Positions 1 to 33,140 of a stretch of 64,000 bases of DNA are shown one piece after another. Below the pieces are notes generated by a model. It did no database searches, was not told the origin of the DNA, and saw only the letters and a program-made list of their open reading frames with translations. The DNA comes from an uncultured Verrucomicrobiae bacterium (lineage in GTDB: Bacteria; Verrucomicrobiota; Verrucomicrobiia; Limisphaerales; JAFGQR01). Position 1 is the first letter of the stretch; each line of letters begins with the position of its first letter. Position numbers and translations under genes: made by a program. The stretch is from assembly GCA_963788655.1 (NCBI GenBank), contig CAWBHS010000081.1:64001-128000 (forward strand), in the 5' to 3' direction.

Positions 1-3000
1 GGGAATGGCCGCCAGGATGCCACTGATATTGCTGATGCTCACCACTTGGTTATTGACCGTGCTATAACGATCGCCAATCAACAGGTCAATCCCGGCGTGG
101 CCGTTCAAAAGGTCGTTGCCATCGCCACCAATCAACAGATCGTTGCCCGAGCCGCCGTACAATTCGTCGTCGCCATCGCCGCCATCAAGGATGTCATCAT
201 CCCGACTGCCGCGGAGAATGTCGCGACCCGCACCCCCGATCAAATAGTCAATGCCGGCACCACCTTCGATGGTGTCGTTGCCGGCGCCGCCTTCGACATA
301 GTCATTACCTTTGCCCGCATCGATGGTGTCGTCACCCTCGTCGCCGTAAAGCTCGTCGTCGAGCGCGCTACCGGTGATTGTATCCCGCCCCGCACCGCCG
401 TAAATCGTGATACCCGCCGCCCCGGCCACCAGCGTGTCGTTGCCGGCGTCACCGTAAATCGTCACATTTGTCGCCGCATCGCTGGTGCTGGCGGTAATGG
501 TATCGTTGCCATCATTGCCATGCACAATCGAGCCGGTGCCGTCGCTCAGGAAGATCGTGTCATTGCCCACGCCCCCGTCGATTTCCACGGGGCTCTGCAC
601 GCCGCGGAGGTCAATGTAATCATCGCCTTGACCACCATCGGCTACGATCTTCGCCACGTGCTCGTAGGTGTCCTTGTAGTCACCCCAGCGGACTTCCACA
701 GTCTCATCCCCCGCCGTGCCATCCACGTGCGCCACGATGAAGGTTTCGGAACCGTCGCTGGTGTCAATCGCGCCGCGAGCACCCGCGTTCGGCCCCATGT
801 TCAACGTCAGGCTCGCGCCTTCGGTGGCCAGTTCGGGCTCAGGGCAGGTGATGTCAAACGAGAACAAGGTGATCTCAGCGAAACGCCAGGTTTTATCGAT
901 GCTGAAGAAGAAGAGATCCACACTCAGGAACGCTTCGAGGAAGAGTCCCAGTTCGCCGTGGATGTTAAAGATGCAGCGTGGATCGGTCTGGGCCAGGGCA
1001 ATGATTTCGCTGACGCGCACCTTACCGTCGTCATCCACGTCGTTCAGGTCGAAATCGATGGTGGCAAAGATGCCGCCGCGCACACCGGCTTCGACGATGA
1101 GCAAGTCAATCGAAGCGCCGGCGAAGATTTCCCCGCTCAGGGAAAGTTCCGGCTGGTCGTTGCCATTGGCGTCGAAGTCCAGCACATAGAACCCGTCGAG
1201 CAGATCGAGCACATTCTTGTCTTCGGACGCGATGAATTTCTGAATGCCGAAGGTATCGTAGCCAAACCCAATGTTGATGGTGGCGCCAATCCGGCCGCCA
1301 AACTGGGCGTAGAGCGGCGGGTAGATGGGAATCTTCTGGATGTAGGTGAACTCGAACTTGAAGGTCGGCATCCGCCATTCGATCAGCCGAACGGTGCCGC
1401 CGGTGAAGAGATTAAACAGCTCGGCCGGATTCTTGAAGATCGGAATGCTGAAATTGTCGAGACTGTTAACATCGCCCACAAATCCCGAGGTCTTGCTCTT
1501 GTAAGTCGAACTGGCGCCGGGGCCCCCGGCATTGTTGATGGCGTTGTTAAGCTCATCCGCGGTCTGGGCGGCAACCTCCTGGATGACCTGGATTTTGTTG
1601 CGGTTGCCGGTGCCGTCATCATTGAGCGTGAAGGAACCGAACGGAATCAGGATGCTGCCTTCGCCGATGCCATCCAATTCGTTGATGATGTTGATGACCT
1701 GGATCACGCTGTCGATGAACTTGACCGTGGACGGTTCCAACAAGCCGAAGGCTGCGGCCAGATCGAGCAACGTGATGGTTTCGCCAGCCAGATCGGACAG
1801 CACCGGCAGCCGGGCGGTGACGATATCAACGATCGGCTGAAGCGGTTCGGTGACCTTGCGGATTTGCTCCAGGATCGGACCCATGAAATCGGAGATGAAT
1901 GTCCCGAGATCAAGAGCCACATTGGTGAAAGCCACCGTGGGCGCACCCGCGCCGTTCTGCAGGTCCCAGGCCCAGTCGAGATGGAACTCCGCCACTACCC
2001 GCGGGAAGGAGGTGTTGCCGCCGAAGCTGGCAGCAAGATCAAGGTTAATGTCCGCGACCGCCTCGAGGTTCGCGTCCACGATGTCCTTGAAGGTCGTTCC
2101 GCTGGAAGTCATTTCGGCGAAGGTCAACTTGCCATCGCCGTTGGGATCACGCAGGTCCACCACAAATTGACCGGTGAAATGGCTGGGATCATCCGGATTG
2201 TCCGCCACGTCCAATTGGAGGAAGGCCAGGGTGCCTTTGGCCGCCAAGCCCGGAATGGTCGCTTCCAGATAGACGCGCAACTCGGGGTCAGCCGCGGTGG
2301 CCGATGAATCGAAGAAGAAACCGTCTTCCTTATTCAAGCCAAAGCCGAACTTGAGGTCAAAGCCCAACGCGAGGATCACGTTGCCTTCGACCGCCAGCCC
2401 GAAGCCCGGCACGCCAATGTCGAAATCAATGGGATTGGCAGAAGTATCCACCAGCGCCATGGACTTGGCCAGCCGCAGATTGACCACGAGTCCGGTATCG
2501 CAATCAAGGGTTACATCCAGTTGCTGGTAACCGAGCGACGGATCCAGGGCGTTGCTGGTAGCCGGATCCACCAGGATGTCCAGACCGTCCGGACCGAGCG
2601 TGTTCCAGAAGGCCTGCTTAATGGCGTTCTCGATGGCGGCAGTAGCGCTGCCGGCGGAATTGACCGCGTCGCGCAGATCGCGCAACAGACCGCTGCGGAA
2701 GTCACTGATGAAATTGGCGGCGCCGGCAAAGCCATTGCCAATCAGCGGCAACGAGGTGGAGTAAGCGACGTCTTCCAAACCGTCCTGAATGGTGCCGAGT
2801 AAGCTGTCGAGACCGTCAAGCAACACCCCCGCATGCTGGTCAATGATGTCGCAAACGCCCACGTCCTCGAACAGGCTGCTGATATCGGGCGCGATGAGAA
2901 TCAGCTTGGAAACCGTTACCGTGCCGGAGCCGTTGTTCGAGCCGCTGGGATCGTCATCAAGGAAGGAAACGGTCCAGTCACCACCACCGCCCAGGGCTTC

Positions 3001-6000
3001 CACCGCACTCTTGATCGAGGTGGCGGTGGAGGAACCGCTGTTGATTTGGATGGTCAGCGTGTTGTTGGCAAAGGCGGCATTGGCTGAGCTACCCACGCTG
3101 CCGTTCTGCTCGAATACGACTTTGAAGTTATCGGAGTCGCCGGCAACGTTGATGATTTCCAGATTGTTCAGCCCGCCCGGAATCCGCACGTCGGCCACGC
3201 CCATGTCTGCCTGGGTATCAACGAAAAGTCGCACCAAGTCGGGAATGTCGATAACGAGGTAGTTATCCGGGTAACCGTCGCCGTTTCCATCCGTCTCGTT
3301 ACCCAACGCGATTTCACTGGGACCAATTTTCGTGAAGACCGGCAGCACCGCGGAAACGCCGCCTTCCATGTGCAGGTCAATGTTGTCGAAATCAAACCAG
3401 TTTTCGGAGAAATAGTGGCGGCCATCGCCATTGTTGTCCCGCAGGCCCAACCGGAACAGGGCGCCTTTGTCACCGTCGCCGGCATCTGTCTCCGGATTGC
3501 CGTCCTGATCAATCGTCACACTGCCGTCGTGAACTACGATGCCCACAATGGCGCCCACCGCCGCACTGAACTCGATGTTGGAACCGAGCACCTTGGCCGT
3601 CAGCACCACACCGGTCGAGTCATAGAAAAACGGACGAGCCGTACTCGGATTGGTGAGGTCCAAGCCGAAGTCGAGCGTCAAAGCCGCACTGGCGCTAACC
3701 GTCAATTGCGCTTCGCCTTCTACCTGAATAAACGTAGTGACCGCATCGAGAAAATCGGCAATGCCGGAATCTTGTCCCGCCAGTTGCTTGACCAGTTTGT
3801 TCAAGTCGAGTTGCAGCGGGAACGTGTTGGCGTACGCGGTTGTGAAATCGAACGCAAATTTGAGCGAGGTCGTGGTAAACGTCCCGTCCCCGGTGTTACT
3901 GCCAAGCGTATTGTCATTGGTCACCTTGGTCGCCGTCCAAGGGTGGCCGGAAAGACCATTGATGGCAGTGATGACGGTGTTCGTGGTGGTGGTGCTGCCG
4001 TTGATCTCGATCTTCAGAATCTTATTGGTATCGTCCCAGGTAACCGTGGCGTTGTCGCCGGTGATCGTGGGGCTGCCGACGATCTGAATGTTCGTGGCGT
4101 TGAAGTCTTCCGCATCGGCCAGGTTGGTGTTGCTGATAATGAAGCCATTGTTCTCGCCGTCCGGATTGATCGTAGTGGTCGAGGCTGCGGAATTATTGAC
4201 GCCGCCGGTGGTGGTCAGGACTGTGGAGGCAATGCCGCCGTCGTCCAGCGAAATAGTCAGGATGTCAGGATTGAGATTGAACAGTTGCTCGATCTGCGTC
4301 TCCAGGTCATCGATCATGCTCTGCAACGACTGCGAGTTGGAATGGGCGGCGGCATCGATGAGATCGGCGAACTTGGACGCATAATCGATCATGTCATTGA
4401 TGCTGATATCAATGATCGGCAGGCGTTCATCGAGGAAGCTGAAGGCGCTCAATTGGCCGAGGTTGTCCGCGATGACCTTCAACGCCTGGATGATTTGAGC
4501 AAAGCTGATGTTCTGGAAATTATTCAGGTTCCCGAAGTCCGGATAGGTTAGGAAAATGCCGGTGTTCGTGCCGTCATAGGGATCCGAATTGTAGTCCAGA
4601 TGATTGATGTCCGGAATCCAGAGAGATACTTCCGGGTTGCTGCCCAGCGGGAACGAGAAGCCGAGGCCGCCAACGGAGATGTTGGGCAGGCGGGCCAGGA
4701 AACTGCCTTCGAAATTGGGACCCTCGATGAAGTTGCCGAGATTGGCGCTCTCAATGCCGTTCATCAGGTCGGCAATGTAGAACCGCGAGTCGCCGGTGGT
4801 TTGGTCAGCCAATCCGATACTGACGCTGATCGGGGCCGGCGTGGTGCCGTCATAGTCCAACGTGCCCAAACTGCCACCAGTGGTGGAGATTTCCACGAAG
4901 CCGAACCGCAGCGAACCGTTGATCGGCGTGGTGGTGGTGACTTCCAGCGAACCGGTCATTTGAACGTCCTCGACAAACAAGCCTTTGACGGTCGATTTCG
5001 CGGTAGTCTGAAAATAACTGGTGCCACCAATCTCCAGCGCCTCGGCGCCGAAGCCCAATTCGGTGGCGAAAATGTCGTCCTGCTCGGAGCGGATGGTGAG
5101 CTTGTTGATCAATCCCAGTTGATTGTCGAGGTTGCCATCGCCGTTCAGGTCTTCCACCCGGTCCAGCACGCCATCGCCATCCAGATCCTCCCCGGTGTCC
5201 AAGCGACCGTTGCCGTTGGTGTCTTCGTTCACCGTACCGAGCATGCCGTCGCCATCGTAGTCCTCATTGATCACGGAGATGGCCAGCCCGGTGCCAGCTT
5301 TTTGCGCGTAAAGCAACTGGTCAATGGCCGTGCTGTTGTAAGTGTTTTCTTTGAAGACTCGGTTCAGGTCCTTCGCCAAATCTACGAGGTTGTTGTTTGG
5401 CGTGAGATCCATCGGATCGGTGCCGTCCGTATAGGACTTGGGTAGCGTCAGGGCCACGGGCGTCAGGGCATTGTCAAAGAAGACTTCAAAGTGGGCATCT
5501 TCACTGATACGCCCGTTGGCCGGGGCCGGAATCAGGCTCGACGAGATGACGCGCGGCACTTCGCCGGCGCCGAGGTCAAAGCCCAAAGTGAACTGGAAGC
5601 TGACGGTGGCGGCAATGTTGAGTTCTCCACTCAAATCAGCACCAGCGATCGAGCCCAAGTCGCCACCGAAATCAAAGGGAAGCGTTGTCGAGTAGGTGGC
5701 GCCCTTATCCACCATGTAGGTGTAAACCTGCTGGGCTTCGTTATAAACCACCGACAGGCCAAGCAAATTGCCCAATTCCTCGAAGAACCCCGGCGTGTCG
5801 TAACGCTCGGTCACGATGCCCACCTGGTCCACCGTAGTATCGTCCGCATCGCCCGGTCCAAAGCCCAGCGCGTTGAATTCGGTATTGCCGGTAACCAGGC
5901 TCAACGTGGTATCGGTGGCGATCAGCGTCGGGGTCAGCGCCAGGACAAACAGGTCGTCATCCGGATTGGTCGTGTCACGTTCATTGATGCGCGCCACCAC

Positions 6001-9000
6001 ACTTCCGGCCAAGCCGGCGGTCATCAACGCGGTGTTGAACCGGGTGACGAGATCATTCCAGTCGCCATAGGCGCCGCTGACCGACACCGGCACCGGTGGA
6101 TCATCGCCGATTTTGAGTTGGAAGTCCGCGCTGCTCAGCGTGCCACTGCTGGTCGCGGTGAGACTGCGCGACTGCAACTCCACGCTGATCATGTTGCTGT
6201 AAATCTCGTCCAGGAACAGTTGTGACCAGTCCAGGAAATCGCCGACTGTCGAGCCACCGGTGAAGGGGATTTCGACGTTGAACACGTCGGCGCCCTTGAA
6301 AATGTCCATCCAGTTGAGCAGTTGCCGGAGCATCCCCACGAACTCGAACGGACCGGGAGCGGCAAAGTCGTCAAAGGACAAGCCGGTGGTGATGTTGCCG
6401 CTCGCATCAATCGAGAGCAGCAAAGAATTGTCGCCTTGGTTGCGGAATTCAACCGTACCGCTGCCGGTATCGACTTCCACCGTGAAGTTAAACGGCAAGG
6501 CCACCGAACCAATGTGCAGGTAGCCGTTGACGTAAATGCGCAGGTATTCGGTTTCGGTCAGATTGATGACGGTCGAACCGCTGGGGGTCGTCACCGTGGT
6601 GTTCACCGCGGCAGTGGTGGTATTCACTTCGAGGCTAATGTCGCCGCTCATACCCACCAATCCGACTTCAAACTCGACATCCGCTACCCCAGCCAGTCCT
6701 CCGTTGGAAATGACAAACGCGCCCGTGCCGTTGTTGAATGAGGCAACGGTCAGCGAACTCACCTTCAAATCGAACGTCAAATCCTCCGCTGCCACTTTGA
6801 AGGTGTTTGGATCGGCATCCGATTTCTCGAACCGGAACACACCGCTCAAGACGACAAATCCGGCCAGATCAATGTCCGCCGCACCAGCCACGGCAAGGTA
6901 ATCGTGATAGTAGGCGCCGGTAAATTCGATGGTCACGTCGTCTGCCGCATCGTCCGAGATGCTGACCGACAGCGGCCCCACATCCGCGCCCGTGCCATTG
7001 AATTCAATTCGCAACTCAGTCGCCGTGACGCTGATGCCCGTGGCGCCGCTCAGGCTGGCGGAATTCACCGTGACCACTCCGGCCACGCCGGCGGGGTAAA
7101 TCACCAAAGCTCCGGTGCCGCCGCTGACATCCAAACTCAGCACCCCAGCCGACAGCGTGCTGCTCAATCCGGCAACGCCGACGGTGATGTAATCCGGGTC
7201 CGGATCGGCATCCACCAAGGTCAGAACAATGGAATCCATCATGAAGGACTGCATCTGTCCCCCAATGTTGATGTCGATGCCAAACGGCGATCCAGGATCG
7301 TAACTCAGGCGATTGAACGGACCAGCAGGCAGGTCCAGTTGTTCGAGCAACTCATCGACCAGCGGCAAGGCCATGGTTTCCAGGCCATCGCCACCCGTCA
7401 GCGGCGCGGGACTGGTCGTGCCCGAACCGGGTCCCGGACCGGCGCCCACTTCCTCGTCAATGGGACTACCAGTGTTGTTGAACGACCAACTGAACGGCTG
7501 CGTGAAACTATTGTTAAAGGCTGAAACCGTGACATCAATGGATCCCTGACCAGCCATGCCCAGATCCGTGAACACGAACAGCGCCGTTCCGTTATTCGCG
7601 GTCAACAGGCTGGTGCCAAAGTCGAAGGCCACATTGCCGGCCCGGACGACTACCAATTGCGTGCCGCCGGTGCTCTCCCGCTGTTCGAAACTGAAATCGC
7701 CCGTAATGCTCACGCCAAACACGTCGAGCGTCACGCCGGTGCCTTGCACTTGGAGATACGGACCCGCCGGCACATCAAGGTGAATAGTGCTGCCGCCGAC
7801 ATCGACCATTTCGTCCACCGCATCCTCCGTGTCGTTAATGCGCACGGTAAACGAGCCGGAAAGAGATACGCCCGTCACATTGAGGGTCACGTCGGCCGAA
7901 GCCTGACCCGCAATGCCATCGCTGGTAATGATGAAGGCGCCCGCAACGTTGCTGATATTCAAGAGGTCGTTGGCAAGCGTACCGAGATCGAATTGGACGT
8001 TGCTGGCCGCCACGGTGACGACCTCCAAGCCGCCAGGACTGGTCGTTTTGCTCTCGAACACGAAATCGCCGGTCAACCCAATCCCGAGAACTGTCAACTG
8101 CGCTCCCGTGGCTTCCACTCGCAGGTACGGGCCGGCCGGCAGCGTTGGAATGCTCACCGACATACCGTTTACGTCCACCGTGCGCGCGGAAAAGATGGTG
8201 TTGGTGTCATTGAGCCGAACATGGAAGGTGCCGGTCAGGTTGAGCGCGGAGACATTCAACGCCACGGTCGCGGTGGTCGAACCGGCAACGCCTGCATCGG
8301 TGAAAACAAACGCGCCTGAACCATTGGTAACGGTCAGCAGTGCCGACGCGCCTTCGTCGAAAGTGAACTGCAAGTTGGCCACGCCCAGCAGAAATTCTTC
8401 GTCGCCGTTGGCGGGATTCGCATCGGTGTCGTTGGGTTCGAACACAAAATCGCCCGTTAAAGTCGCATTGGGCGTGGTCAAGACGATGCTGGCATTGCCG
8501 GAAAGACGGTAATACGGGCCGGCGGGCAAACTCACCGTTTCGCCGTCAATTGTCGAAACCGCTGTCGGTGAGGTGTTGAAGGCCAAGTTCAAGGTGGTGC
8601 CCGAAATATCGATGTTCGGCAGGTCCGGACCGGCGGTGATGGTCAAAGTGGCGGTTCCAGCCAGTTCATCGCCGAGAATGAGGAATTTGCCGCTGCCATT
8701 CTCCACCCGGAGGATGCGCGTGGAACTGCCGCCCACACCCAAGGTGGCTTCATACACCACGTCTTCCGCGAGGACGACGGTTTCAGTTGCCGTCTTCTTG
8801 AGCGTAAACACGCCTTCGAGCGTTTGGCCCAGGATTTCCATTGAGCCATCCACTTCAATCGTTAGATCCGGGTCGGTGCCGCTGAACAAATCGTCGGACT
8901 GGATGCGAACCGTGTGCGTTCCAGTGTAATTCACTACGAAGCCGGTCAACGCGCCGTCCAATACGAAGGAGGCATCCACCGTGCCGGCGTGAGTGAGGTT

Positions 9001-10596
9001 GAAAGCATCGCCGACATTGATGGTGCCGCTGGCGATGTCCGTAAGTGTTGATCGGGTAATTCGCCCGCTGGTGAGGACACTATCATCCGGGGTCGCCGTC
9101 ACCGAGGCATCAAAGGCCACCGACCAACTTGTAACGTCCAGGTTCAGCGGGGCGCCCGGCGGCGTGAGGTCGAAGGCAAACCCGCCCGTCCCGCTGGCGT
9201 CCACCGTGGCCCGAGCAGTCAGGTCTTGAATCTCGACGTAAGCGTCGGCGTCGTAGCCCAAGGTAAATTGAAATTCCAAGGTGCCCTTAATGTCCACCAT
9301 CGGGCTGGGATCAAACGCCGCATCCAAGACTGCGCCGGCGACATCGCTGAGCGCTTGGTTGAGGTGGGTCTGGGTCAGTTGCAGGTTGATGTCCCAGGAA
9401 AAAGGATCGGAGGCGTTCGTGCCATAATGGCCCAGGACACCGAGGATGGTAATTTCGAAACCAGCGACGGTCGTCCCGTCCCAACTTTCGATTTCACTGG
9501 TGACCTGTGATTGGTTCGGTAACAGAGCCAGAAGCGAGTTCAGTTGACCGCGAATGGCATCGTTGATTCCCTGGCCGGCATCGGCCCAAGCGCCAATCGT
9601 CGAGCCGATCAGTGGCAGGTCTTCAGCCAGTTCGCCGATCCCGTCCAAGCCATTGGCAATCTGCTGCAATTTGACCAACCCGTCTTGCAATGCCGTCTCT
9701 GCGGTCGGGACAATCGTGTGGGTGGAGACAACTTGAAGGGTTAGATCATTGGCGTTATAGACCGGAACAAAAGCCAATTCCGGATGGCCAGGGATACTGG
9801 TAGTGCCACGCCAATTGGCAAATTCACCGGTGCGTGAGCCCCAAGTGAAAATAACAAAAGTATCTCCGGCGGAAAGTGTTGGGCTGCCAATGACTTGAAT
9901 TTGAAGAGTGCCGTCAAGTTCGGCCAGACCGCTAATAACAAATTGATCGTGTCCCGTCGGGTCAATCCCGGGACCGTCCGTTCCTCCAATGCGAATCGTA
10001 GTAGTTTCACCAAGCTCCTGGCTGAAGGTCGTCAGATTTGTGACCGTAATGCCAACCGGGGCGCCTTGAGTTTCCAGAGCTGCTTCCAAGAGAGGGGAGG
10101 CAGACTCAAGCAGTCCGTCAGCAGGAGGTCCGTTGGCGCTGCGTAACGTCTGGGTCAATTGACCCGCCATGGAATCGGAAACGGGATTGAAATCGGGTTT
10201 GATCGTCGGCGGCAGTTCGTCCGCCTCGAACGGTTCGCTTGGCGACTGTTCGGTCTGGTTTTCAGTCGCTTCGTGTTCCGCATTTACCTTTTGCTCGAAT
10301 GTTCCAGGCTGTGACTCATTGTCACTCTCTGGTGCGGACGAGGATTCGCTGGAAGCAGGAGAGGAATCGGAAGAAACATCTTCAAAGATGTTCCCCAAAC
10401 TAGAGGCCGGATCGTAGTCAAGTTGCTCCTCATCAGCGTCAGAATTGGCAGGAGATTGCTCAGTCGTTTCGACGGGATCAAGGAGTTGGTCGGCCAGAAT
10501 GGCACCGGCACATGCGCCGGCAACGTCTGCGGAAAGCATGATTCGCGGCTCCAGAGCCTCGAGTTCGAATCGTCGTTTTGAGGTTTCGTGCTTCAC
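1..10596 (-). CDS. Giant LEPR-XLL-domain secreted protein with RTX (hemolysin-type Ca-binding) repeats, >3,500 aa, 3' end outside window
   Basis: GTG at 10596 gives MKHETSKRRFELEALEPRIMLSADVAG. No minus-strand ORF in the track ends in this frame, so it has no stop down to position 1. The long + strand ORFs at 46, 3370, 4600, 5491 etc. share its codon register (antisense shadows). GGxGxD repeats near 70-640. Confidence 0.93.
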   Translation of the reverse strand, partial: MKHETSKRRFELEALEPRIMLSADVAGACAGAILADQLLDPVETTEQSPANSDADEEQLDYDPASSLGNIFEDVSSDSSPASSESSSAPESDNESQPGTFEQKVNAEHEATENQTEQSPSEPFEADELPPTIKPDFNPVSDSMAGQLTQTLRSANGPPADGLLESASPLLEAALETQGAPVGITVTNLTTFSQELGETTTIRIGGTDGPGIDPTGHDQFVISGLAELDGTLQIQVIGSPTLSAGDTFVIFTWGSRTGEFANWRGTTSIPGHPELAFVPVYNANDLTLQVVSTHTIVPTAETALQDGLVKLQQIANGLDGIGELAEDLPLIGSTIGAWADAGQGINDAIRGQLNSLLALLPNQSQVTSEIESWDGTTVAGFEITILGVLGHYGTNASDPFSWDINLQLTQTHLNQALSDVAGAVLDAAFDPSPMVDIKGTLEFQFTLGYDADAYVEIQDLTARATVDASGTGGFAFDLTPPGAPLNLDVTSWSVAFDASVTATPDDSVLTSGRITRSTLTDIASGTINVGDAFNLTHAGTVDASFVLDGALTGFVVNYTGTHTVRIQSDDLFSGTDPDLTIEVDGSMEILGQTLEGVFTLKKTATETVVLAEDVVYEATLGVGGSSTRILRVENGSGKFLILGDELAGTATLTITAGPDLPNIDISGTTLNLAFNTSPTAVSTIDGETVSLPAGPYYRLSGNASIVLTTPNATLTGDFVFEPNDTDANPANGDEEFLLGVANLQFTFDEGASALLTVTNGSGAFVFTDAGVAGSTTATVALNVSALNLTGTFHVRLNDTNTIFSARTVDVNGMSVSIPTLPAGPYLRVEATGAQLTVLGIGLTGDFVFESKTTSPGGLEVVTVAASNVQFDLGTLANDLLNISNVAGAFIITSDGIAGQASADVTLNVTGVSLSGSFTVRINDTEDAVDEMVDVGGSTIHLDVPAGPYLQVQGTGVTLDVFGVSITGDFSFEQRESTGGTQLVVVRAGNVAFDFGTSLLTANNGTALFVFTDLGMAGQGSIDVTVSAFNNSFTQPFSWSFNNTGSPIDEEVGAGPGPGSGTTSPAPLTGGDGLETMALPLVDELLEQLDLPAGPFNRLSYDPGSPFGIDINIGGQMQSFMMDSIVLTLVDADPDPDYITVGVAGLSSTLSAGVLSLDVSGGTGALVIYPAGVAGVVTVNSASLSGATGISVTATELRIEFNGTGADVGPLSVSISDDAADDVTIEFTGAYYHDYLAVAGAADIDLAGFVVLSGVFRFEKSDADPNTFKVAAEDLTFDLKVSSLTVASFNNGTGAFVISNGGLAGVADVEFEVGLVGMSGDISLEVNTTTAAVNTTVTTPSGSTVINLTETEYLRIYVNGYLHIGSVALPFNFTVEVDTGSGTVEFRNQGDNSLLLSIDASGNITTGLSFDDFAAPGPFEFVGMLRQLLNWMDIFKGADVFNVEIPFTGGSTVGDFLDWSQLFLDEIYSNMISVELQSRSLTATSSGTLSSADFQLKIGDDPPVPVSVSGAYGDWNDLVTRFNTALMTAGLAGSVVARINERDTTNPDDDLFVLALTPTLIATDTTLSLVTGNTEFNALGFGPGDADDTTVDQVGIVTERYDTPGFFEELGNLLGLSVVYNEAQQVYTYMVDKGATYSTTLPFDFGGDLGSIAGADLSGELNIAATVSFQFTLGFDLGAGEVPRVISSSLIPAPANGRISEDAHFEVFFDNALTPVALTLPKSYTDGTDPMDLTPNNNLVDLAKDLNRVFKENTYNSTAIDQLLYAQKAGTGLAISVINEDYDGDGMLGTVNEDTNGNGRLDTGEDLDGDGVLDRVEDLNGDGNLDNQLGLINKLTIRSEQDDIFATELGFGAEALEIGGTSYFQTTAKSTVKGLFVEDVQMTGSLEVTTTTPINGSLRFGFVEISTTGGSLGTLDYDGTTPAPISVSIGLADQTTGDSRFYIADLMNGIESANLGNFIEGPNFEGSFLARLPNISVGGLGFSFPLGSNPEVSLWIPDINHLDYNSDPYDGTNTGIFLTYPDFGNLNNFQNISFAQIIQALKVIADNLGQLSAFSFLDERLPIIDISINDMIDYASKFADLIDAAAHSNSQSLQSMIDDLETQIEQLFNLNPDILTISLDDGGIASTVLTTTGGVNNSAASTTTINPDGENNGFIISNTNLADAEDFNATNIQIVGSPTITGDNATVTWDDTNKILKIEINGSTTTTNTVITAINGLSGHPWTATKVTNDNTLGSNTGDGTFTTTSLKFAFDFTTAYANTFPLQLDLNKLVKQLAGQDSGIADFLDAVTTFIQVEGEAQLTVSASAALTLDFGLDLTNPSTARPFFYDSTGVVLTAKVLGSNIEFSAAVGAIVGIVVHDGSVTIDQDGNPETDAGDGDKGALFRLGLRDNNGDGRHYFSENWFDFDNIDLHMEGGVSAVLPVFTKIGPSEIALGNETDGNGDGYPDNYLVIDIPDLVRLFVDTQADMGVADVRIPGGLNNLEIINVAGDSDNFKVVFEQNGSVGSSANAAFANNTLTIQINSGSSTATSIKSAVEALGGGGDWTVSFLDDDPSGSNNGSGTVTVSKLILIAPDISSLFEDVGVCDIIDQHAGVLLDGLDSLLGTIQDGLEDVAYSTSLPLIGNGFAGAANFISDFRSGLLRDLRDAVNSAGSATAAIENAIKQAFWNTLGPDGLDILVDPATSNALDPSLGYQQLDVTLDCDTGLVVNLRLAKSMALVDTSANPIDFDIGVPGFGLAVEGNVILALGFDLKFGFGLNKEDGFFFDSSATAADPELRVYLEATIPGLAAKGTLAFLQLDVADNPDDPSHFTGQFVVDLRDPNGDGKLTFAEMTSSGTTFKDIVDANLEAVADINLDLAASFGGNTSFPRVVAEFHLDWAWDLQNGAGAPTVAFTNVALDLGTFISDFMGPILEQIRKVTEPLQPIVDIVTARLPVLSDLAGETITLLDLAAAFGLLEPSTVKFIDSVIQVINIINELDGIGEGSILIPFGSFTLNDDGTGNRNKIQVIQEVAAQTADELNNAINNAGGPGASSTYKSKTSGFVGDVNSLDNFSIPIFKNPAELFNLFTGGTVRLIEWRMPTFKFEFTYIQKIPIYPPLYAQFGGRIGATINIGFGYDTFGIQKFIASEDKNVLDLLDGFYVLDFDANGNDQPELSLSGEIFAGASIDLLIVEAGVRGGIFATIDFDLNDVDDDGKVRVSEIIALAQTDPRCIFNIHGELGLFLEAFLSVDLFFFSIDKTWRFAEITLFSFDITCPEPELATEGASLTLNMGPNAGARGAIDTSDGSETFIVAHVDGTAGDETVEVRWGDYKDTYEHVAKIVADGGQGDDYIDLRGVQSPVEIDGGVGNDTIFLSDGTGSIVHGNDGNDTITASTSDAATNVTIYGDAGNDTLVAGAAGITIYGGAGRDTITGSALDDELYGDEGDDTIDAGKGNDYVEGGAGNDTIEGGAGIDYLIGGAGRDILRGSRDDDILDGGDGDDELYGGSGNDLLIGGDGNDLLNGHAGIDLLIGDRYSTVNNQVVSISNISGILAAIP
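70..640 (-). repeat. RTX nonapeptide repeat block inside the giant protein
   Basis: Translation reads GGQGDDYI, GGVGNDTI, GDAGNDTL, GGAGRDTI, GDEGDDTI, GGAGNDTI, GGAGIDYL, GGDGDDEL, GGSGNDLL, GGDGNDL. Confidence 0.9.
5115..5275 (-). repeat. Tandem DxDGDG-type Ca-binding loops inside the giant protein
   Basis: NEDYDGDGMLG, NEDTNGNGRLD, GEDLDGDGVLD, VEDLNGDGNLD (four copies). Confidence 0.8.
7680..8530 (-). repeat. About 125-130-aa tandem beta-rich modules inside the giant protein
   Basis: PAGPYYRLSG..LTGDFVFEP, PAGPYLRVEATG..LTGDFVFES and PAGPYLQVQGTG..ITGDFSFEQ spaced roughly 365-390 nt apart. Confidence 0.75.
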
Positions 10597-23682: not shown

Positions 23683-23714
23683 AGCATGACGGACTCTTTA
23701 GCCAAGGGGCATGA

Positions 23715-24693: not shown

Positions 24694-24709
24694 GCCCCCT
24701 GAATGACAA

Positions 24710-25774: not shown

Positions 25775-25843
25775 GCTCCAGTGTGGGGGAGCCGAGGCGG
25801 TCCGGTGCAAGCGAAAAAGCAGTGACTCAGAGTGGCAGCCCGA

Positions 25844-25916
25844 TTCACCGTAAAGACGCGAAGCGCGCAAAGAACGTCGCTGAGTAACTTTGCGCCCTTC
25901 GTGACTTTGCGGTGAA
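25844..25916. repeat. Palindromic REP-like element (TTCACCG...CGGTGAA family), copy 2
   Basis: ttcaccgtaaagacgcgaagcgcgcaaag / ctttgcgcccttcgtgactttgcggtgaa. Confidence 0.75.
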
Positions 25917-26059
25917 ATGGAGCCGTCCAAGCCCTTTGCGGGCAACCGTTCCGGTTCGCGCGGGACGATGCGCCCCTCATCAAATTCAACTTAGGTCGGC
26001 GGCTACGGCGGCCGCGAAATATCCTGGCCAATGTGTCCGCTGATGCTTGCGGGCCTCAA

Positions 26060-28057
26060 TCACGTTCCCCCCGCGTCCCCGCCGGCAAAGGAAAGGGCCT
26101 CCTCCAGCCACGTGTCGGTGCGCAACACAGTCTTGCGTTGTTTGAAGGTGTGATGTTGGGAGTTGTGTTGCGCCAACACGAAGGCGGCTTGGGCAATTCT
26201 CCGGCGGCCGGGCACGCCGTTGCGAAGGCTGCGCCGCAAGGCATGTTGCAACGATCGCGGCAGGTAGCGGCGGATGAGTTCGTCCTCGGCGCTGACAAAT
26301 GCTTGCGCGCTGCCGGGATCTCCCTGCCGGGCAGAACGACCAAAGAGCTGCCGGTCCACCCGCCCGGACTCGTGGCGTTCGGTGGACAGCACGTGCAATC
26401 CGCCGTTGATCGCCACACCGGCGCCCAGTTTTATGTCCGTACCGCGTCCGGCCATGTTGGTGGCAATGGTGATGCATCCGGGTTCCCCGGCCAGGGCCAC
26501 GATGGCGGCTTCTTCCTGATGGCGCACCGCGTTGAGCAAGCGGAACTCCAGCTTCCGCTCGTGGAGCAAGGTGGCGAGCTTTTCACTGGCCGCCACACTG
26601 CGCGAGCCGACCAGGATTGGGCGACCGACGGTGTGCAGCCGTTCGATTTCCTCGACAATAGCCGTCCATTTGGAATCTTCATCCGCAAACACCCGGTCCG
26701 GCCAATGCTCGCGGATGCACGGCTTGTTGGTCGGGATGGCAACCACTGGGAGCTTGTAGATTTGCCAAAATTCCCCCGCCGCCTCGCGGGCCGTGCCCGA
26801 CATGCCGGCCAAGCGATGAAAGCACCGGAAGAACCGTTGAAAGCTGAGCCGGGCGATGGTTTCGGAGGGATTGGAAATGGTCAATTCTTCCTTGGCTTCG
26901 ATGGCCTGGTGTAAACCCTGACGCCAGGTGCGCTGGGGCATTTGCCGGCCGGTGAATTCATCGACGATGACGATCTTCTCGCTGTCCGCAATGATGTATT
27001 GCTTATCACGATGAAAGAATTCGCGCGCCACCAATGCCTGCCGGATTAATTCGTCCCGCCGGTCCCGGCCCTGCCAAAGCCCGGGCAACGACGCGCAAGC
27101 CGCCGCCACCTTTTCGCGCCCCGGCCGGGTCAATTCGATTTCCCGGTAACGTTGATTGAGCTGGTAGTCCGTTCCGGTTGCCAGGGAGTCCGCAATCTGT
27201 TGGGCGATGGTAACGGCTTGTTCGAGGTTCTCATTTTTCTGCGCCGCGGAGATGATGAGCGGCGTCACCGCTTCGTCCACCAATACGCTGTCCGCTTCGT
27301 CCACAATGGCGGTATATAGGCCCCGCATCACCAAGCCGTCGCGCACCGCCAATTGCGGACGTAGCAACTGACGGATCAATCGGCGTGACGGATGATTCAG
27401 CGTGCCGAGCCGCAACCGGTCGCGCAGAAAGTCCGCCAGCAACTCTTTACTGGTCACGTACGTGATGTCCGCCGCGTAACCCTTCTGGCGGTCTGGCGGC
27501 TCCATCGCACCAGTAACGCAGCCTTCGCGAACGCCGCAAAAGGTGTAGAGCGGCCGCATCCATTTCGCGTCACGCTGAACGAGGTAATCGTTCACCGTCA
27601 CGATGTGGCAGGGGCGCCGGGTCCATCCCGCCAGCACCGCCGCCAGACTGGCCGTCAGCGTCTTGCCTTCGCCGGTGGCCATTTCCGCCAGGTAACCTCG
27701 GTGCAACGCCAACGCCCCCATCAGTTGCACGACGAACGGCCGCAATCCCAGGAGCCGCGCGGCCGCTTCCCGAACGGCCGCCAGCGCCGGCACGACGCAA
27801 TCTTCAACATCTTTCCCGCCCCGACGGAATTGCGCGCGAAACTCCATGAGTTTCTCGTGCAATTGATGATTGGGCAGATCCTGCCAGTGGCCGGCATGCG
27901 CGTCGATGGTTTCGGCGAGGCGGCGCAGGTCCGTCAGAATGTGCGGGCGACGATGGTAATGTCCCGCCACGCTGTGGACCGCCGCGTCCAATCCCTTGAG
28001 CAAACGCGGCGGCGTGCGGTGACTAAAGCGGCGGAATTGCTGAGTGGGCGTGATCAC
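26060..28057 (-). CDS. Secondary SecA-like ATPase (SecA_DEAD + preprotein cross-link + helicase C; no wing/scaffold C-terminus), about 665 aa
   Basis: EMATGEGKT, VTVNDYL, DEADSVLVDEAVTPLIIS, VDEFTGR, GLHQAIEAKE, ATNMAGRGTDIKL, HESGRVDRQLFGRSARQGDPGS. Ends far short of canonical SecA. GTG start 7 nt after the M50 gene stop. Confidence 0.9.
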   Translation of the reverse strand: MITPTQQFRRFSHRTPPRLLKGLDAAVHSVAGHYHRRPHILTDLRRLAETIDAHAGHWQDLPNHQLHEKLMEFRAQFRRGGKDVEDCVVPALAAVREAAARLLGLRPFVVQLMGALALHRGYLAEMATGEGKTLTASLAAVLAGWTRRPCHIVTVNDYLVQRDAKWMRPLYTFCGVREGCVTGAMEPPDRQKGYAADITYVTSKELLADFLRDRLRLGTLNHPSRRLIRQLLRPQLAVRDGLVMRGLYTAIVDEADSVLVDEAVTPLIISAAQKNENLEQAVTIAQQIADSLATGTDYQLNQRYREIELTRPGREKVAAACASLPGLWQGRDRRDELIRQALVAREFFHRDKQYIIADSEKIVIVDEFTGRQMPQRTWRQGLHQAIEAKEELTISNPSETIARLSFQRFFRCFHRLAGMSGTAREAAGEFWQIYKLPVVAIPTNKPCIREHWPDRVFADEDSKWTAIVEEIERLHTVGRPILVGSRSVAASEKLATLLHERKLEFRLLNAVRHQEEAAIVALAGEPGCITIATNMAGRGTDIKLGAGVAINGGLHVLSTERHESGRVDRQLFGRSARQGDPGSAQAFVSAEDELIRRYLPRSLQHALRRSLRNGVPGRRRIAQAAFVLAQHNSQHHTFKQRKTVLRTDTWLEEALSFAGGDAGGT

Positions 28058-28064
28058 GCGGCGT

Positions 28065-30215
28065 TCACATTTGATACCGCTTTTGCAGAAGTTGGTACAG
28101 ACGACGCATCCAGCGAGGCAGCAGCGGCTCGGGATCGAGATCAAAACGAATCTTGCCGGCGCGTCCATGGACATAGGCGACTTCCGGATCCGTCGGCAAA
28201 TCGGCATGAACTTCAAAAAACGGCTCCGCCGCCTTCGACGGATCCTTCGGCGTGACGGCAACCTCGCCACCCGCGGCCCAGCCCAATGCGGGCGAGGGTA
28301 ATTGCTGTTTGCCGCCAGGAATGACTTCCCAACTTTTGGCGCGAATCATTTCTCCTGCCTGGCCGTACAACCGAATTTCCGCGCCATGAATGTGCCGGGC
28401 AAAAATGGCATCGACATCCGCCTGTTCGACCGTAGCCGTGAACTCAAACGTGGCCGGTTCAACCAACAACCCCAGAGGCGTGCCACGTTCCAACCGCCGT
28501 CCCAGGTAATCCTGAATGCCGGGCGCCACCCAGACGCCGGGCTGCCGAGCCCGAACTACCAAAGACGCGTGATCGGCTTTCAATTTGCGCAAACGCTGCG
28601 TCACGGTTTCCATCCGGCTTTGGAGCGGTTTCAGATTGGCGGTGGCCTCTTTCATGGCCTGACGGAGACGCGCTTCAATTTCCTGGTAACGTGCCTGCGC
28701 GTTGACCAAATCCAGTTCGAGCTCCGGATTGCTCAATTGCACGAGCGCATCATTCGGTCGCACGCGACTGCCTGGCTGGGCCAGCACGGTTTGGACGGTG
28801 CCCGCGACCTCATTCAATACCAACGACCGATCATGCGCCTGAAGAATGCCCGGCGCACGGAAATGGCTGGGAAAGGGAATGACCGCCAGCAATACCAGGA
28901 GCGCTGCCGCCAGGCCCACCGTGGCAGCCACGGCCCGCGGACGGTTCCGATCGAGACGGGGACTGGACGCGAGGTAATGGATGAACTTGCCAACCGGCAC
29001 AATCACCCAGGAGATCAGACAGACGACCGCCATGATGATGCCCAGAATAAAAAAACGGTCGGCGACCAGCAGCAAGATGCCGCCGAAGACAATCACCCGA
29101 TAAATCCCGCTGGCAATGCCGAAGACCACCAGCCAGACGGCCTCGCGGCGATTGTTCGCCGGGCTGTCCTCTTTCTTTAAACCAAACAACCAGCGTTCGG
29201 CATAAAAGCGCAGTTGCCGCATGGCGCGCTGGGAGAGGTTCGGGATTTCGAGCAGGTCGGACAAAATGTAGTAACCATCAAACCGCAGCAACGGATTGAC
29301 GTTGAACACGACCGTGGACACTGACGCGACAAACAACATGTTGTACGCCAGGCTGTGGATGGTGCCGGGCCCAGTGTTTGCCCAGACAAAAACCGCCAGC
29401 GCGGCCACGAACAACTCGACGATCATGCCCGCGCATCCGACCAGGATGCGTTTCCAGCGGCTGCGGAAGGCCCAACTTGAAGTGGCATCCACGTACGGCA
29501 CCGGCGTGAAGATCATGAACAGGATGCCCATGGTGTGAACTTCGCCGCCGAACCGACGGCAGAAAAAGGCATGGCCGAACTCGTGCAGCGTCTTGATGAT
29601 CACCAATCCCGCGTACAGCAGGAACAAGTTGTCCGGCGCCAGCACCGCCTGCGAATGTTCGCGCAGCGTGGAAAAATTGTCGGCTACAACCTTCAATCCC
29701 CACCCGACCACCACCAGCCAGATCAAGGCGCCAATCGGATTGAGCAGCTTGCCCACCAGCGGCATTGCGCGCACCAGAAACCGGTCGGGATCCAGCAGCG
29801 GGATGCGCATGAACATGATGTTCATCAATCGCGCCGCAGTTTCGCGTTGTTTGCGTTTCTTGTACCGGTCGAACAATTGGGCGCTGTCAGCGGCCAGATC
29901 GTATTGCAGCAGGTTGGCGAAATACAATTGGGACAACAACTGGATTACGGCTTCCTGGCCGGGGGCTTCATCGGGGAACCGGTTGAGGCACTGCTGCCAG
30001 GCCTCCTGCACCGTGCAGTCCGGCCGCAAGCGCGCGACGAACTCGTACGCCGCGGGCCGGAGCCGGAAGAACTGGTTGCTGAAGGGATTCTCCAGGACGA
30101 TCCACCGATCCCCTCGATAATTTTGGCGCCGCACCTTGATGCCAGGGCGCAGGTGAATGCGCTGGTTGGCAATGCGGTACCACGACTCACTAAAAGTTGG
30201 AAGACTTTCAGCCAT
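28065..30215 (-). CDS. PqqD/RRE-like + M50 (site-2) zinc metalloprotease + HlyD-type membrane-fusion protein
   Basis: HEFGH and NVNPLLRFDGYY M50 motifs within TM segments. N-terminal winged-helix-like region (WIVLENP..NQFFRL..TVQEAW..VIQLLSQL). C-terminal lipoyl halves (EVAGTVQTVLAQPGSRV; ARQPGVW) flanking a coiled coil. Confidence 0.88.
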   Translation of the reverse strand: MAESLPTFSESWYRIANQRIHLRPGIKVRRQNYRGDRWIVLENPFSNQFFRLRPAAYEFVARLRPDCTVQEAWQQCLNRFPDEAPGQEAVIQLLSQLYFANLLQYDLAADSAQLFDRYKKRKQRETAARLMNIMFMRIPLLDPDRFLVRAMPLVGKLLNPIGALIWLVVVGWGLKVVADNFSTLREHSQAVLAPDNLFLLYAGLVIIKTLHEFGHAFFCRRFGGEVHTMGILFMIFTPVPYVDATSSWAFRSRWKRILVGCAGMIVELFVAALAVFVWANTGPGTIHSLAYNMLFVASVSTVVFNVNPLLRFDGYYILSDLLEIPNLSQRAMRQLRFYAERWLFGLKKEDSPANNRREAVWLVVFGIASGIYRVIVFGGILLLVADRFFILGIIMAVVCLISWVIVPVGKFIHYLASSPRLDRNRPRAVAATVGLAAALLVLLAVIPFPSHFRAPGILQAHDRSLVLNEVAGTVQTVLAQPGSRVRPNDALVQLSNPELELDLVNAQARYQEIEARLRQAMKEATANLKPLQSRMETVTQRLRKLKADHASLVVRARQPGVWVAPGIQDYLGRRLERGTPLGLLVEPATFEFTATVEQADVDAIFARHIHGAEIRLYGQAGEMIRAKSWEVIPGGKQQLPSPALGWAAGGEVAVTPKDPSKAAEPFFEVHADLPTDPEVAYVHGRAGKIRFDLDPEPLLPRWMRRLYQLLQKRYQM

Positions 30216-30323
30216 GCATTGTTCGAATGGACTTTAGGCTAATTGCGCCGCCGATGCAACCTTGCTGCTGCGCGGGCATTGGAAGACCTCAAGAACTATG
30301 AGACTAGTACCGGAAGTAGCATT

Positions 30324-30459
30324 AACCACGGATTTCATGGATTTCACGGATACAAAACCTTGGACGCCCGAGGCGTCGCCAAGTTGCCTCACAATACAGG
30401 TGACCACTCTTCTTCAGGAAAGTTCTTCGCCATCTGTGTAATCCGGGCGATCCGTGGTT
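30324..30459. repeat. Long imperfect inverted repeat (AACCACGGAT...ATCCGTGGTT)
   Basis: aaccacggatttcatggatttcacggat ... atctgtgtaatccgggcgatccgtggtt, with 9-nt internal periodicity in the arms. Confidence 0.7.
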
Positions 30460-30469
30460 CCAACTGCTT

Positions 30470-30762
30470 TGAGGTTCAAGTGGTGCGACGGCAGGGGTGC
30501 TGTGGGAAGAAGGCATTTTGAAAAATATTGCTCGCCGAGTTCGCTGACGGTTTGGGGGAAGGAGCATTATGGGGAAGAACGCCGGGCGAGTAAGTGGGAG
30601 CGAGTCGAGCGCACTGTGTCCGCCGAACCGCGCCGTTCGGGCTGCAAAAAGTTGCGCTTGGCGCAGACGCCGACGGAGCAGCGGGTGAAGGTATGGCTGG
30701 CGAATGGTGACCGGTCAGCCATCTCTAACTTGGCGTGTGCGCGAAAATTTTGGAAAAAGTGA
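30470..30762 (+). mobile_element. Degenerate RAYT/IS200-like transposase C-terminal remnant
   Basis: VRRQGCCGKKAF*KILLAE then GKEHYGEERRAS..ERVERTV..RLAQ..KVWLANG..ISNL, resembling Y1-transposase tails (recalled). 30621-30777 aligns at roughly 75% with 33019-33174. Confidence 0.6.
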
Positions 30763-31179: not shown

Positions 31180-31196
31180 TTTGAGGGAGTGACCGC

Positions 31197-32393
31197 ATGA
31201 GCCTCCATCTGCGACGCGTGGTGATTATTGCAGGCGCGGCGTTCGTGGCCGTCCTGGGACTGATCCTCGTGCTGGGCGGCAACGGGTCGGAAATCACTCT
31301 GGCCGACGGCACGCGCCTCCGCCTGGTCGGCGTGAGCGTGGGCACGAATGAGTTTACGACGGAGCGTCCGTGGTCCCGTGCGGCCCGGCAGATCCTGCCA
31401 CGACGCTTTCAAGAACGGCTTCCACGATCCACCCATGGCGCCTGTTACTCGACGAATGGCATCGCCATCTGGCTGGAGGACTTGGCTCCCGGGTCCCGCA
31501 CTAACGTGGTCCGCAAGTGGGGCTCGGTAGAAACTGTCAGCCGCAACGGAGACGTGCTCACGAGCCAAGACGCTCCGGGACACTATAGCGGCGGCGGTCG
31601 ATGCCAGCCGGTCTTCCTGTCGAAGTTTCCCCGTCGGCAGAAAAGTTTCCTGCTCCGGCTCTACGACCAGAAAGGCCAACTAGCCGGCGAACTAACGGTG
31701 GTAAATCCGTGCCGGGGACCATTCCCCCAATGGAAGGCGGAGACGCCGCCCGTGACCAAGACGAACGGCGATCTGACGGCGACATTCAAAGGGTGGAAGC
31801 GGCTGCTTGAGGAGAGTCCGCCAGGGCGGACCAACCAGAACTTGAAGGCCGATTTTGAGTTCAAATGGGCCGGCGCCCCCACGACCGAATGGGAGCTCGG
31901 CCCGTGTCGGCTCGATGATGCCACGGGCAATTCCGTTGGCGGGCTGTGTCCGGAACTCCCGCTCAGCGAGCCGGTCTGGAGATTGCACGGCTGGTTCGAG
32001 CGGCGTCGTGAGGCGGTCTTCGCTCCAGACGAACATTTTGTCTTTACCAACCTGAACGTCTTGTCGGCCGGCTCCTTCACCAATCTCAACCTCGCCACGA
32101 ATCTTCAAGGCGTGGGCCTGTGGATTCTCTGGTGGTCTGGTCCGGCCACGCTCACGCTCAGCAACGGTTTCCCCGTGCGCGCCGAGCCGACGCAAGGCAC
32201 CAACGCCTACCGCCAGTTGTCGCTGAAATGGGCCAATGGAACTTGGCGAGAGGTCATCACCGTCGGACGGAGCACGCTGCTCATCGCACAGACGCCCGCT
32301 GGCCTGGACGTGCAAGTGGATTGTATGATGCGCGATTCGAACGGGCGCGCAACCGCCCCTTCCCCGGACGTGGAATCACCCCAGCTTTGTTGA
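31197..32393 (+). CDS. Hypothetical membrane-anchored/secreted protein
   Basis: 398-aa ORF, RBS-like gggag upstream, N-terminal TM (VVIIAGAAFVAVLGLILVL) then beta-rich body; no family recognised; C-terminus may be frameshifted. Confidence 0.65.
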   Translation: MSLHLRRVVIIAGAAFVAVLGLILVLGGNGSEITLADGTRLRLVGVSVGTNEFTTERPWSRAARQILPRRFQERLPRSTHGACYSTNGIAIWLEDLAPGSRTNVVRKWGSVETVSRNGDVLTSQDAPGHYSGGGRCQPVFLSKFPRRQKSFLLRLYDQKGQLAGELTVVNPCRGPFPQWKAETPPVTKTNGDLTATFKGWKRLLEESPPGRTNQNLKADFEFKWAGAPTTEWELGPCRLDDATGNSVGGLCPELPLSEPVWRLHGWFERRREAVFAPDEHFVFTNLNVLSAGSFTNLNLATNLQGVGLWILWWSGPATLTLSNGFPVRAEPTQGTNAYRQLSLKWANGTWREVITVGRSTLLIAQTPAGLDVQVDCMMRDSNGRATAPSPDVESPQLC

Positions 32394-32643: not shown

Positions 32644-33140
32644 ATGGCCCGCAAGCTCCTACCAGCACGAACGCGCCATCTACCTTTTGATGAGCCGGGA
32701 GAGCGTGCGCGAGGCGATCCCCCATGAGGATCACGATCGAAAAGCGTTCATCCACCCGCCGAGCCAATGCTGTAAACGCAACCGCTGGCAGGTGCATACG
32801 CTGTGCCTAAAGTTGCGTATTGCGACAACAACTGGATCACGGCTTCCTGGCCGGGGGCTTCATCGGGGAACCGGTTGAGGCACTGCTGCCAGGCCTCCTG
32901 CACGGTGCAGTCCGGCCGCAAGCGCGCGACGAATTCGTAAGCCGCGGGCCGGAGCCGGAAGAACTGGTTGCTGAAGGGATTCTCCAGGACGATCCACCGT
33001 TCGCCCCGGTAATTCTGGCGCCGCACTGCACCGTTCGAACTGCGAAGAGTGCGCTCGGCGCAGATGCCGAAGGGGCACCGGGCGAAGGGGTGGTTGGCGA
33101 TGGGTAACCGGTCAACCATCTCCAACTTGGTGTGTGAGTA
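32644..33140 (+). mobile_element. Degenerate RAYT/IS200-like transposase interrupted by an antisense M50-gene fragment
   Basis: ATG 32644 MARKL, frameshift, then AIYLLMSRESVREAI.HEDHDRKAF...CC....WQVHTLCL (Y1 N-terminus, stops just before the HUH motif). AQMPKGHRAKGWLAMGNRSTISNL tail after 33027. Confidence 0.65.
32819..33026 (-). repeat. 208-bp direct copy of 29927-30134 (5' region of the M50 gene)
   Basis: Ungapped alignment at offset 2892; I count 10 mismatches, all at codon third positions. Confidence 0.95.

Follow-up and report, generated by a model that had tools for sequence, protein, structure and literature searches.

The 64,000-nucleotide stretch of DNA analysed here, which we call the window, comes from an uncultured Verrucomicrobiae bacterium (assembly GCA_963788655.1, contig CAWBHS010000081.1, positions 64,001 to 128,000). 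It carries on its minus strand two adjacent genes, one for a protein that fuses a predicted RRE-like domain (RRE, RiPP recognition element; RiPP, ribosomally synthesised and post-translationally modified peptide) to an M50 protease and a HlyD-type adaptor, the other for a short paralog of the SecA motor. We consider it a somewhat better than even bet (a probability of roughly 0.55) that this pair is the cytoplasmic-membrane half of a five-gene, envelope-spanning exporter, which would comprise a TolC-like outer membrane efflux protein (OEP), a small HlyD protein, a GAF-HlyD protein, the RRE-M50-HlyD fusion and the SecA-like ATPase, and which would export giant proteins carrying an N-terminal LEPR-XLL tag. 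This proposal is drawn from comparisons of sequences, gene neighbourhoods and genome contents.

The fusion gene (28065..30215, minus strand, ATG start) is an open reading frame (ORF) of 716 codons with Pfam and NCBIfam matches. It ends at the junction ...ATG TGA acgccgc GTG..., which leaves the 7 nt described in the initial annotation before the GTG start of the SecA-like gene (26060..28057, minus strand, 665 aa). Within the fusion, an N-terminal domain of predicted PqqD/RRE fold (residues ~10-105; 29901..30188) is followed by a membrane domain of the M50, site-2-protease type (residues ~150-450; 28866..29768), delimited by Pfam, catalytic residues and hydropathy and containing the motifs HEFGH (residues 211-215; 29571-29585) and NPLLRFDG (residues 307-314; 29274-29297). 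The C-terminal part (residues ~447-716; 28068..28877, all on the minus strand) gave HlyD_D23, HlyD_3 and RND_mfp matches and is read as a HlyD-type periplasmic adaptor domain. Peptidase_M50 passed its Pfam cut-off (5.3e-9, 36.2 bits against 27.2); HlyD_D23 (2.2e-4), HlyD_3 (3.5e-3) and PqqD (PF05402; 3.5e-3, residues 42-102, 18.1 bits against a gathering cut-off of 23.4) stayed under theirs. A crude hydropathy scan, on which the membrane topology is based, gave about 7-8 membrane segments for the fusion and predicted none in the RRE-like domain or in the SecA paralog.

A scan of 1.84 billion representative proteins returned 13,153 matches to the fusion at E<=0.001, of which 4,541 also passed E<=1e-30. 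Among the best 150 relatives the majority are ~716 aa long and align over almost the entire query, at identities of 32-55%. Across 116 aligned family members H211, E212, N305, N307, P308 and D313 are invariant and H215 almost so, and because of this conservation we expect the protease to be active. Pfam matches at E<=0.01 were obtained among 59 of these members for M50 (55/59), HlyD_3 (35/59), HlyD_D23 (31/59) and PqqD (30/59), the strongest PqqD match being 3.4e-8. With the domain matches, the two intact motifs and the structural model described below, the three-part architecture read from the bare sequence in the initial annotation is borne out.

The SecA paralog was delimited by Pfam, NCBIfam and alignment and contains NBD1, PPXD, NBD2 and the start of the scaffold helix. 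SecA_DEAD (5.8e-96), SecA_PP_bind (3.1e-25) and P-loop_SecA (3.9e-56) were matched in Pfam, which gave no SecA_SW match, and the protein aligns with residues 16-604 only of Bacillus subtilis SecA. It therefore lacks, on the domain boundaries and roles assumed here, the wing, the two-helix finger and the C-tail as well as the greater part of the scaffold. The Walker A motif GEGKT is present in 62/62 sequences (61 orthologues and the window copy), whose lengths fall between 609 and 676 aa, with conservation among the orthologues extending to the DE[AV]D box and the motif TNMAGRGTDI. Since both length and motifs are conserved, the truncation is a trait of the family, and a broken gene is ruled out. 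The protein scores 607-610 bits against the canonical SecA models TIGR00963 and NF009538, whose cut-offs are 800-814, and lies below every cut-off of the SecA2 models in NCBIfam. A canonical secA with SecA_SW and SEC-C is encoded on contig C38 of the same genome, so the short protein is not its only SecA. The earlier description of a motor with its ATPase motifs and no C-terminal wing or scaffold was thus accurate.

To follow the pair across genomes, 563 fusion relatives in species-representative genomes were collected and the best 80 loci kept; genes in these loci were found by BLAST of six-frame ORFs with the proteins of our genome, so that the counts of small HlyD and OEP genes are lower bounds. 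The SecA-like gene lies directly 3' of the fusion on the same strand in 64 of the 70 loci whose flank is 1.5 kb or longer, which makes the two genes conserved neighbours, and the projected gap between them has a median of 6.5 nt over 68 loci, many being -4 or +4. Loci without a SecA-like gene directly downstream are L036, L049, L066, L067, L085 and L095; five of these exception genomes were checked, and four have a full or partial SecA-like match (E<=1e-119) elsewhere, the L036 genome being the fifth. A GAF-HlyD gene stands immediately upstream of the fusion in 62/66 loci, and where flanks are long a small HlyD gene was found in at least 33 and an OEP gene in at least 17 of 42. By their record titles, the loci span Verrucomicrobiota, Planctomycetota, Nitrospirota, Desulfobacterota, Beta- and Gammaproteobacteria, Fibrobacter, Spirochaetota and Myxococcota.

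The initial annotation had seen no TolC or second adaptor in the window, and indeed Pfam detected neither a TolC nor a further adaptor at 20-36 kb of the window, and none of the OEP matches of the whole genome fell on the window's contig. They are instead encoded on contig C60, where an OEP gene, a gene for a 372-aa HlyD/biotin-lipoyl protein and one for a 622-aa GAF-HlyD protein stand in a row. Each is single copy in the genome and 48-62% identical to the corresponding fusion-flanking gene in the closest loci (L023, L024 and L047). Because the upstream genes missing from the window are found together on C60, the five-gene module is complete in this genome but split over two contigs.

The connection to a cargo comes from the LEPR-XLL tag (NF012209, NCBIfam). 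Among 151 genomes of the phylum, those with a match to NF012209 (E<=0.001) and those with the SecA paralog (E<=1e-100) are identical, 11 genomes belonging to 11 genera, and the 140 others have neither. The fusion profile reached 869 bits or more only in those 11, with 28 more genomes giving matches of 500 bits or less, a split that was noticed after the fact. Judged by coordinates, the tagged ORF is directly 3' of the SecA-like gene in 3/10 of the other carriers in the phylum. The tag was likewise found in 5/5 module genomes of other phyla as against 0/14 control genomes. A gammaproteobacterial order was represented by 121 genomes, 18 of them with the tag and 10 with a short SecA paralog (one weak, at 260 bits), the paralogs having been told from canonical SecA after the fact by ORF length and query coverage; the tag accompanies 9/10 of the genomes with the paralog and 9/111 of those without, a link that is strong but imperfect. 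Fifteen of the 80 loci have a large ORF that begins with a LEPR-type motif, and in L024, L027, L040 and L082 this ORF is the next one after the SecA-like gene, although the pattern is short and by a rough estimate a few of these matches could be due to chance. Taken as sequence evidence, these associations make the LEPR-XLL giants the probable cargo of the module.

In the genome studied here NF012209 matches three ORFs, of 6112 aa on contig C22, 5413 aa on the window's own contig (C81) and 3631 aa on contig C23, which are the 1st, 2nd and 7th longest of the genome. The C81 giant is encoded on the minus strand, like the SecA-like gene, and begins 15.5 kb downstream of it at window position 10596; the window holds its 5' part (1..10596, 3532 of 5413 codons), beyond which the gene runs past the window start, and its tag is encoded at 10513-10569 (minus strand). 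The protein contains RTX nonapeptide repeats, Calx-beta and SdrD_B domains and is acidic and poor in cysteine (14.2% D+E, 3.9% K+R and 8 Cys in 5413 residues; the long ORFs of the genome have 1.0% Cys). Alignment of 17 leaders gave the consensus [FY]xLExLE[PDEQ]RxLLSA[DE]P behind a basic stretch of variable length, with E13, L15, E16, R18 and L21 invariant, and this tag is unlike a hydrophobic Sec signal peptide. A leader of the kind that the initial annotation had predicted is therefore plausibly present, on giant RTX-type proteins and not on a small RiPP-like peptide. A second conserved motif, YDPxxQxxxIF, was observed some 60-75 residues into several giants from different genomes and reads LDYDPASSLGNIF in the window giant. 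Further huge ORFs in the same direction follow the other two giants, one of 4096 aa on C23 (9367-20262, then 20294-32584) and three of 897, 2135 and 1247 aa on C22 (82948-113919); the C22 and C23 giant genes may in truth be much longer and broken by frameshifts.

We then considered whether the N-terminal domain could read such a tag. The structure predicted for fusion residues 1-130 from the family alignment is a confident one (pLDDT 89.3, pTM 0.79). Its strands lie at 20-22, 27-33, 36-43 and 48-52 and its helices at 54-61, 69-79 and 87-99, corresponding to the winged helix-turn-helix of RRE/PqqD domains, a three-stranded sheet followed by three helices. Foldseek on its own gave no match to this model at E<=0.001. 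Its structure matches include TbiB1 (8.9), PqqD (8.5), TigE (8.3), ThcOx (7.9), MibB (7.5) and the PbtF RRE (7.2), together with MccB, LynD, TbtB, MadB, CteB, NisB and SuiB. Winged helices of other kinds (Rv2067c, NovN/GdmN and MINA53) reach similar scores. The domain is thus modelled as RRE-like, but such a fold is by itself no proof that a peptide is bound.

Comparison with a paralogous cassette adds to this picture. The weaker fusion matches belong to a cassette of DUF3467, GAF-HlyD, HlyD and M50-HlyD genes, with or without an OEP gene (L110-L113). The genomes of all four cassettes (G005, G108, G132 and G006, respectively) gave no LEPR-XLL match, and among the neighbouring ORFs scanned there was no ABC gene except a Wzt-type ATPase ~1.8 kb away in L111. 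At positions W12, W38, W73, P85 and Q87 of the RRE-like domain the SecA-linked subfamily hardly varies, whereas 4/4 of these paralogs have other residues there; the catalytic residues and R51 in strand 3 are retained in both groups (n=4 for the cassettes). Because the cassette fusions keep the catalytic residues and R51 and replace the other five positions, the pattern fits an N-terminal domain that acts as a specificity module. In RRE/PqqD domains the leader peptide lies along strand 3 and helix 3; that the domain described here might bind in this way is indicated only indirectly, by the invariant R51 and by W12, W38, W73 and Q87, which are specific to the subfamily.

The initial annotation had pointed to an earlier report of secondary SecA genes beside genes resembling those of type I secretion systems (T1SSs). 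Kamneva, Poudel and Ward (2015, PLoS One, PMC4452313), in the parts of the article considered here, describe secondary SecA_DEAD proteins without wing and scaffold in Verrucomicrobia, Planctomycetes, Proteobacteria and Nitrospirae, associated with three clusters, Peptidase_M50, HlyD/biotin-lipoyl and GAF with HlyD, and sometimes with OEP; they proposed that the paralog provides ATPase activity instead of an ABC transporter, with M50 as a possible membrane component. Those parts of the article name no cargo and no N-terminal tag, and the term PqqD has 0 occurrences in it. The features of that module are all found here, namely a SecA_DEAD protein without wing and scaffold beside a canonical SecA, an adjacent M50/HlyD gene, and HlyD, GAF-HlyD and OEP genes on C60, so the window pair nearly certainly belongs to it and is not new. 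The present case is distinguished by a module divided between two contigs and by a tagged giant gene at a distance of 15.5 kb. The ABC-less core of the exporter suggested for this locus, with a SecA paralog as ATPase and M50 in the membrane, had accordingly been published in 2015, and it is the plausible leader that is added. Titles, abstract openings and passages of the open-access literature on SecA_DEAD pointed to the 2015 paper as the only one treating the module, and the portions seen of a T1SS review do not mention it. Where LEPR-XLL was mentioned in the open-access text covered, it was as annotation only, and nothing was found there that joins daptide with M50, or peptidase M50 and HlyD with a giant protein. 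A preprint on giant genes (10.1101/2023.11.21.568195) deals, in the part seen, with SecA domains fused inside giant proteins, a different subject from this module.

Several known systems share parts of the proposed design. Classical T1SSs (HlyB-HlyD-TolC, LapBCE) export RTX proteins and giant adhesins by means of a C-terminal signal. The module resembles them in its HlyD-type adaptors, its TolC-type channel and an acidic, cysteine-poor giant RTX cargo; it differs in having no ABC transporter, a SecA-like motor, three different adaptors, a metalloprotease fused to one of them and a candidate signal at the N-terminus. Peptidase-containing ABC transporters combine C39 cysteine protease and ABC domains and handle small peptides with double-glycine leaders. 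Recognition of a leader and its proteolytic removal inside the export machine would be common to both, whereas the module would pair its RRE with an M50 metalloprotease and be driven by a SecA-like motor. It also recalls the accessory SecA2 of Gram-positives and mycobacteria in assigning a second SecA paralog to special cargo; SecA2 proteins retain the scaffold and work with SecY or SecY2, while the paralog described here ends after NBD2 and pairs with M50, HlyD and TolC components.

On these grounds a sequence of export steps can be proposed. The cytoplasmic RRE-like domain would bind the basic [FY]xLExLE[PDEQ]RxLLSA-type tag at the N-terminus of an unfolded giant, and the clamp formed by PPXD and NBD2 of the SecA-like motor would grip the chain and feed it N-terminus first at the expense of ATP. 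The M50 membrane domains together with the adaptor anchors might form the portal, with the three HlyD-type adaptors building a periplasmic tunnel up to the TolC-like channel. The tag would be removed at the M50 active site, and the RTX repeats would fold outside the cell with calcium. We infer these assignments, of tag reading to the RRE-like domain, of tag removal to M50 and of N-terminus-first export to SecA through three adaptors and TolC, from the nature of the parts. That they add up to a distinct, one-step, TolC-linked pathway without an ABC transporter, in which a truncated SecA threads giants N-terminus first, an RRE reads LEPR-XLL and an adaptor-fused M50 cuts the tag, is a tentative suggestion that we would sooner bet against than for.

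A number of observations weigh against the exporter and its assignment to the giants. The operon is split in this genome, and its OEP gene (C60:324946-326785) falls into two overlapping frame-shifted ORFs that cover TolC model positions 73-195 and 221-404. The candidate cargo gene in the window is separated from the pair by unrelated housekeeping genes (ABC-2, HAD, Lpt-like, HprK, FabI-like, MFS and ApbE). RTX repeats lie near the C-terminus of the giants, as in classical T1SS substrates that leave C-terminus first; this end of the giant is possibly affected by assembly errors. No dedicated inner-membrane channel protein is evident in the module, and M50 proteases are not known to serve as export pores. 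In the gammaproteobacterial sample tag and SecA paralog part company in both directions: 9 genomes have only the tag, in several cases as a match with a weak E-value or one at the edge of a contig, and 1 has only the paralog. Because related genomes are not independent, the co-occurrence counts overstate the evidence. The four cassette genomes inspected have no SecA paralog and only a canonical SecA (~1000 aa). Since the paralogous cassette occurs without it, the adaptor-protease apparatus may not need a dedicated motor. For the suggestion in the initial annotation that the SecA paralog replaces the ABC ATPase this cassette, built on the same type of fusion, is an obstacle. In favour of the exporter, no HlyB-type ABC protein reaches the cut-off in this 86%-complete genome (best TIGR01846, 375.8 bits against 725.55).

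The strongest competitor, which we nevertheless regard as unlikely, is that the module translocates nothing and processes, retains or releases giant adhesins in the way that LapG and LapD act on LapA, with the M50 and GAF domains controlling an N-terminal anchor and the giants reaching the surface by another envelope route. The C-terminal RTX repeats typical of classical T1SS cargo would suit this arrangement, as would the GAF sensor domain in the module, the REC-GGDEF-EAL proteins in 9/80 loci and the existence of a motor-less paralogous cassette. However, the module itself encodes a conduit in the form of a TolC-like channel and three adaptors; no HlyB-type ABC protein reaches its cut-off in this 86%-complete genome, and HlyB/PrtD-type transporters are not among the gene families that recur in the 80 loci. 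The RRE-like domain and the SecA paralog, taken as cytoplasmic in view of their lack of predicted membrane segments, are also ill suited to a periplasmic release switch.

Export could alternatively proceed in two steps: the SecA paralog would first send the tagged giants through SecYEG, and a periplasmic intermediate would then be moved across the outer membrane by the adaptors and TolC. A motor that is a SecA homologue with a preprotein-binding domain, in a module with no evident channel of its own, would be at home in such a scheme. In SecA the SecA_SW region, with wing, scaffold and two-helix finger, couples the motor to SecY, and it is this region that the paralog does not have. The tag, moreover, is not a hydrophobic Sec signal peptide, and translational coupling ties the SecA-like gene to the M50 fusion rather than to sec genes. 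We judge this two-step route improbable, and prefer direct passage of the giants through the five-component exporter.

We give less credence again to the idea that the module is decaying or inactive in this genome. A 208-nt direct repeat (32819-33026), 95% identical to the RRE-coding part at the 5' end of the fusion gene (29927-30134), lies 2.9 kb upstream of it within a 125-aa ORF (32748..33125, minus strand) that carries a truncated copy of the RRE-like domain. This ORF may have been left behind when a rearrangement split the operon; the repeat could be a rearrangement scar, part of a stand-alone RRE-like gene or an assembly artefact. Decay would also explain the divided OEP gene and the absence of GAF-HlyD from its usual place upstream of the fusion. 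Yet neither window gene is damaged or short of an invariant residue, and in 4 of the 5 exception genomes checked the SecA-like gene is found elsewhere in the genome. The assembly shows further signs of indel errors; the essential canonical secA (C38:173682-176781) is itself spread over at least 4 frame-shifted ORFs, which suggests that the frameshifts in it and in OEP are errors of assembly and not marks of pseudogenes.

Very improbable is a RiPP-like system in which RRE and M50 remove the leader of a small ribosomal peptide, matured and exported as in daptide or epipeptide pathways: the RRE fold and the matches to daptide_HExxH (NF041824, the best in NCBIfam, 2.3e-52, residues 22-406, spanning the RRE-like stretch and the M50 core as in the daptide protease) and YydH/LiaK (NF058609, 2.1e-9) invite it, but the scores are far under their cut-offs (178.4 bits against 300 and 37 against 225), the fusion, unlike those proteases, carries a HlyD domain and has secretion genes and no RiPP genes as neighbours, the sole recurrent small ORF family of the 80 loci is DUF3467, no modifying enzyme was seen among the recurrent families examined, and the co-occurrence is with giant proteins.

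If the exporter described here is real, many Gram-negative phyla would send out their largest surface proteins by a machine that is neither classical type I nor Sec, and SecA paralogs of diderm bacteria would gain a function. To our knowledge RRE domains have so far come from RiPP biosynthesis only; leader recognition of this type, known for small natural-product peptides, would then be extended to proteins of 5,000-20,000 residues. The link between tag and module offers a concrete, testable cargo for a module in print since 2015, and the window contributes a natural example of the machine occupying two loci, with dispersed cargo genes.

Other gene families accompany the module in part of the loci. 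DUF3467 proteins are encoded upstream of GAF-HlyD, mostly directly, in 13/80 loci (L045-L101, for example L084:3441-3794), and SapC-family proteins occur in 11/80 (L038-L102, for example L064:4690-5463); neither was found in the genome studied here. A sequence search of the PDB with DUF3467 gave nothing useful, and nothing relevant was found in the literature on this family. Promoter and terminator scans gave matches no better than those of shuffled sequence, and Rfam gave no match at 24-36 kb of the window. This interval includes two short stretches upstream of the fusion gene, 30309-30468 and 30968-31052, that recur at 70-89% identity on other contigs of the genome (C114, C50, C80 and C110; C2, C49 and C57). 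Between the two copies of the 208-nt repeat lies an ORF of 398 aa on the plus strand (31197..32393) without a family match. Towards the giant gene, window positions 16424-19921 encode an ordinary HAD hydrolase, two LptA/LptC-like proteins and an LptB-like ABC ATPase. On C60, 5 kb downstream of the GAF-HlyD gene, an ORF of 834 aa (335007-337511) gave weak matches to RHS repeats and Peptidase_C39.

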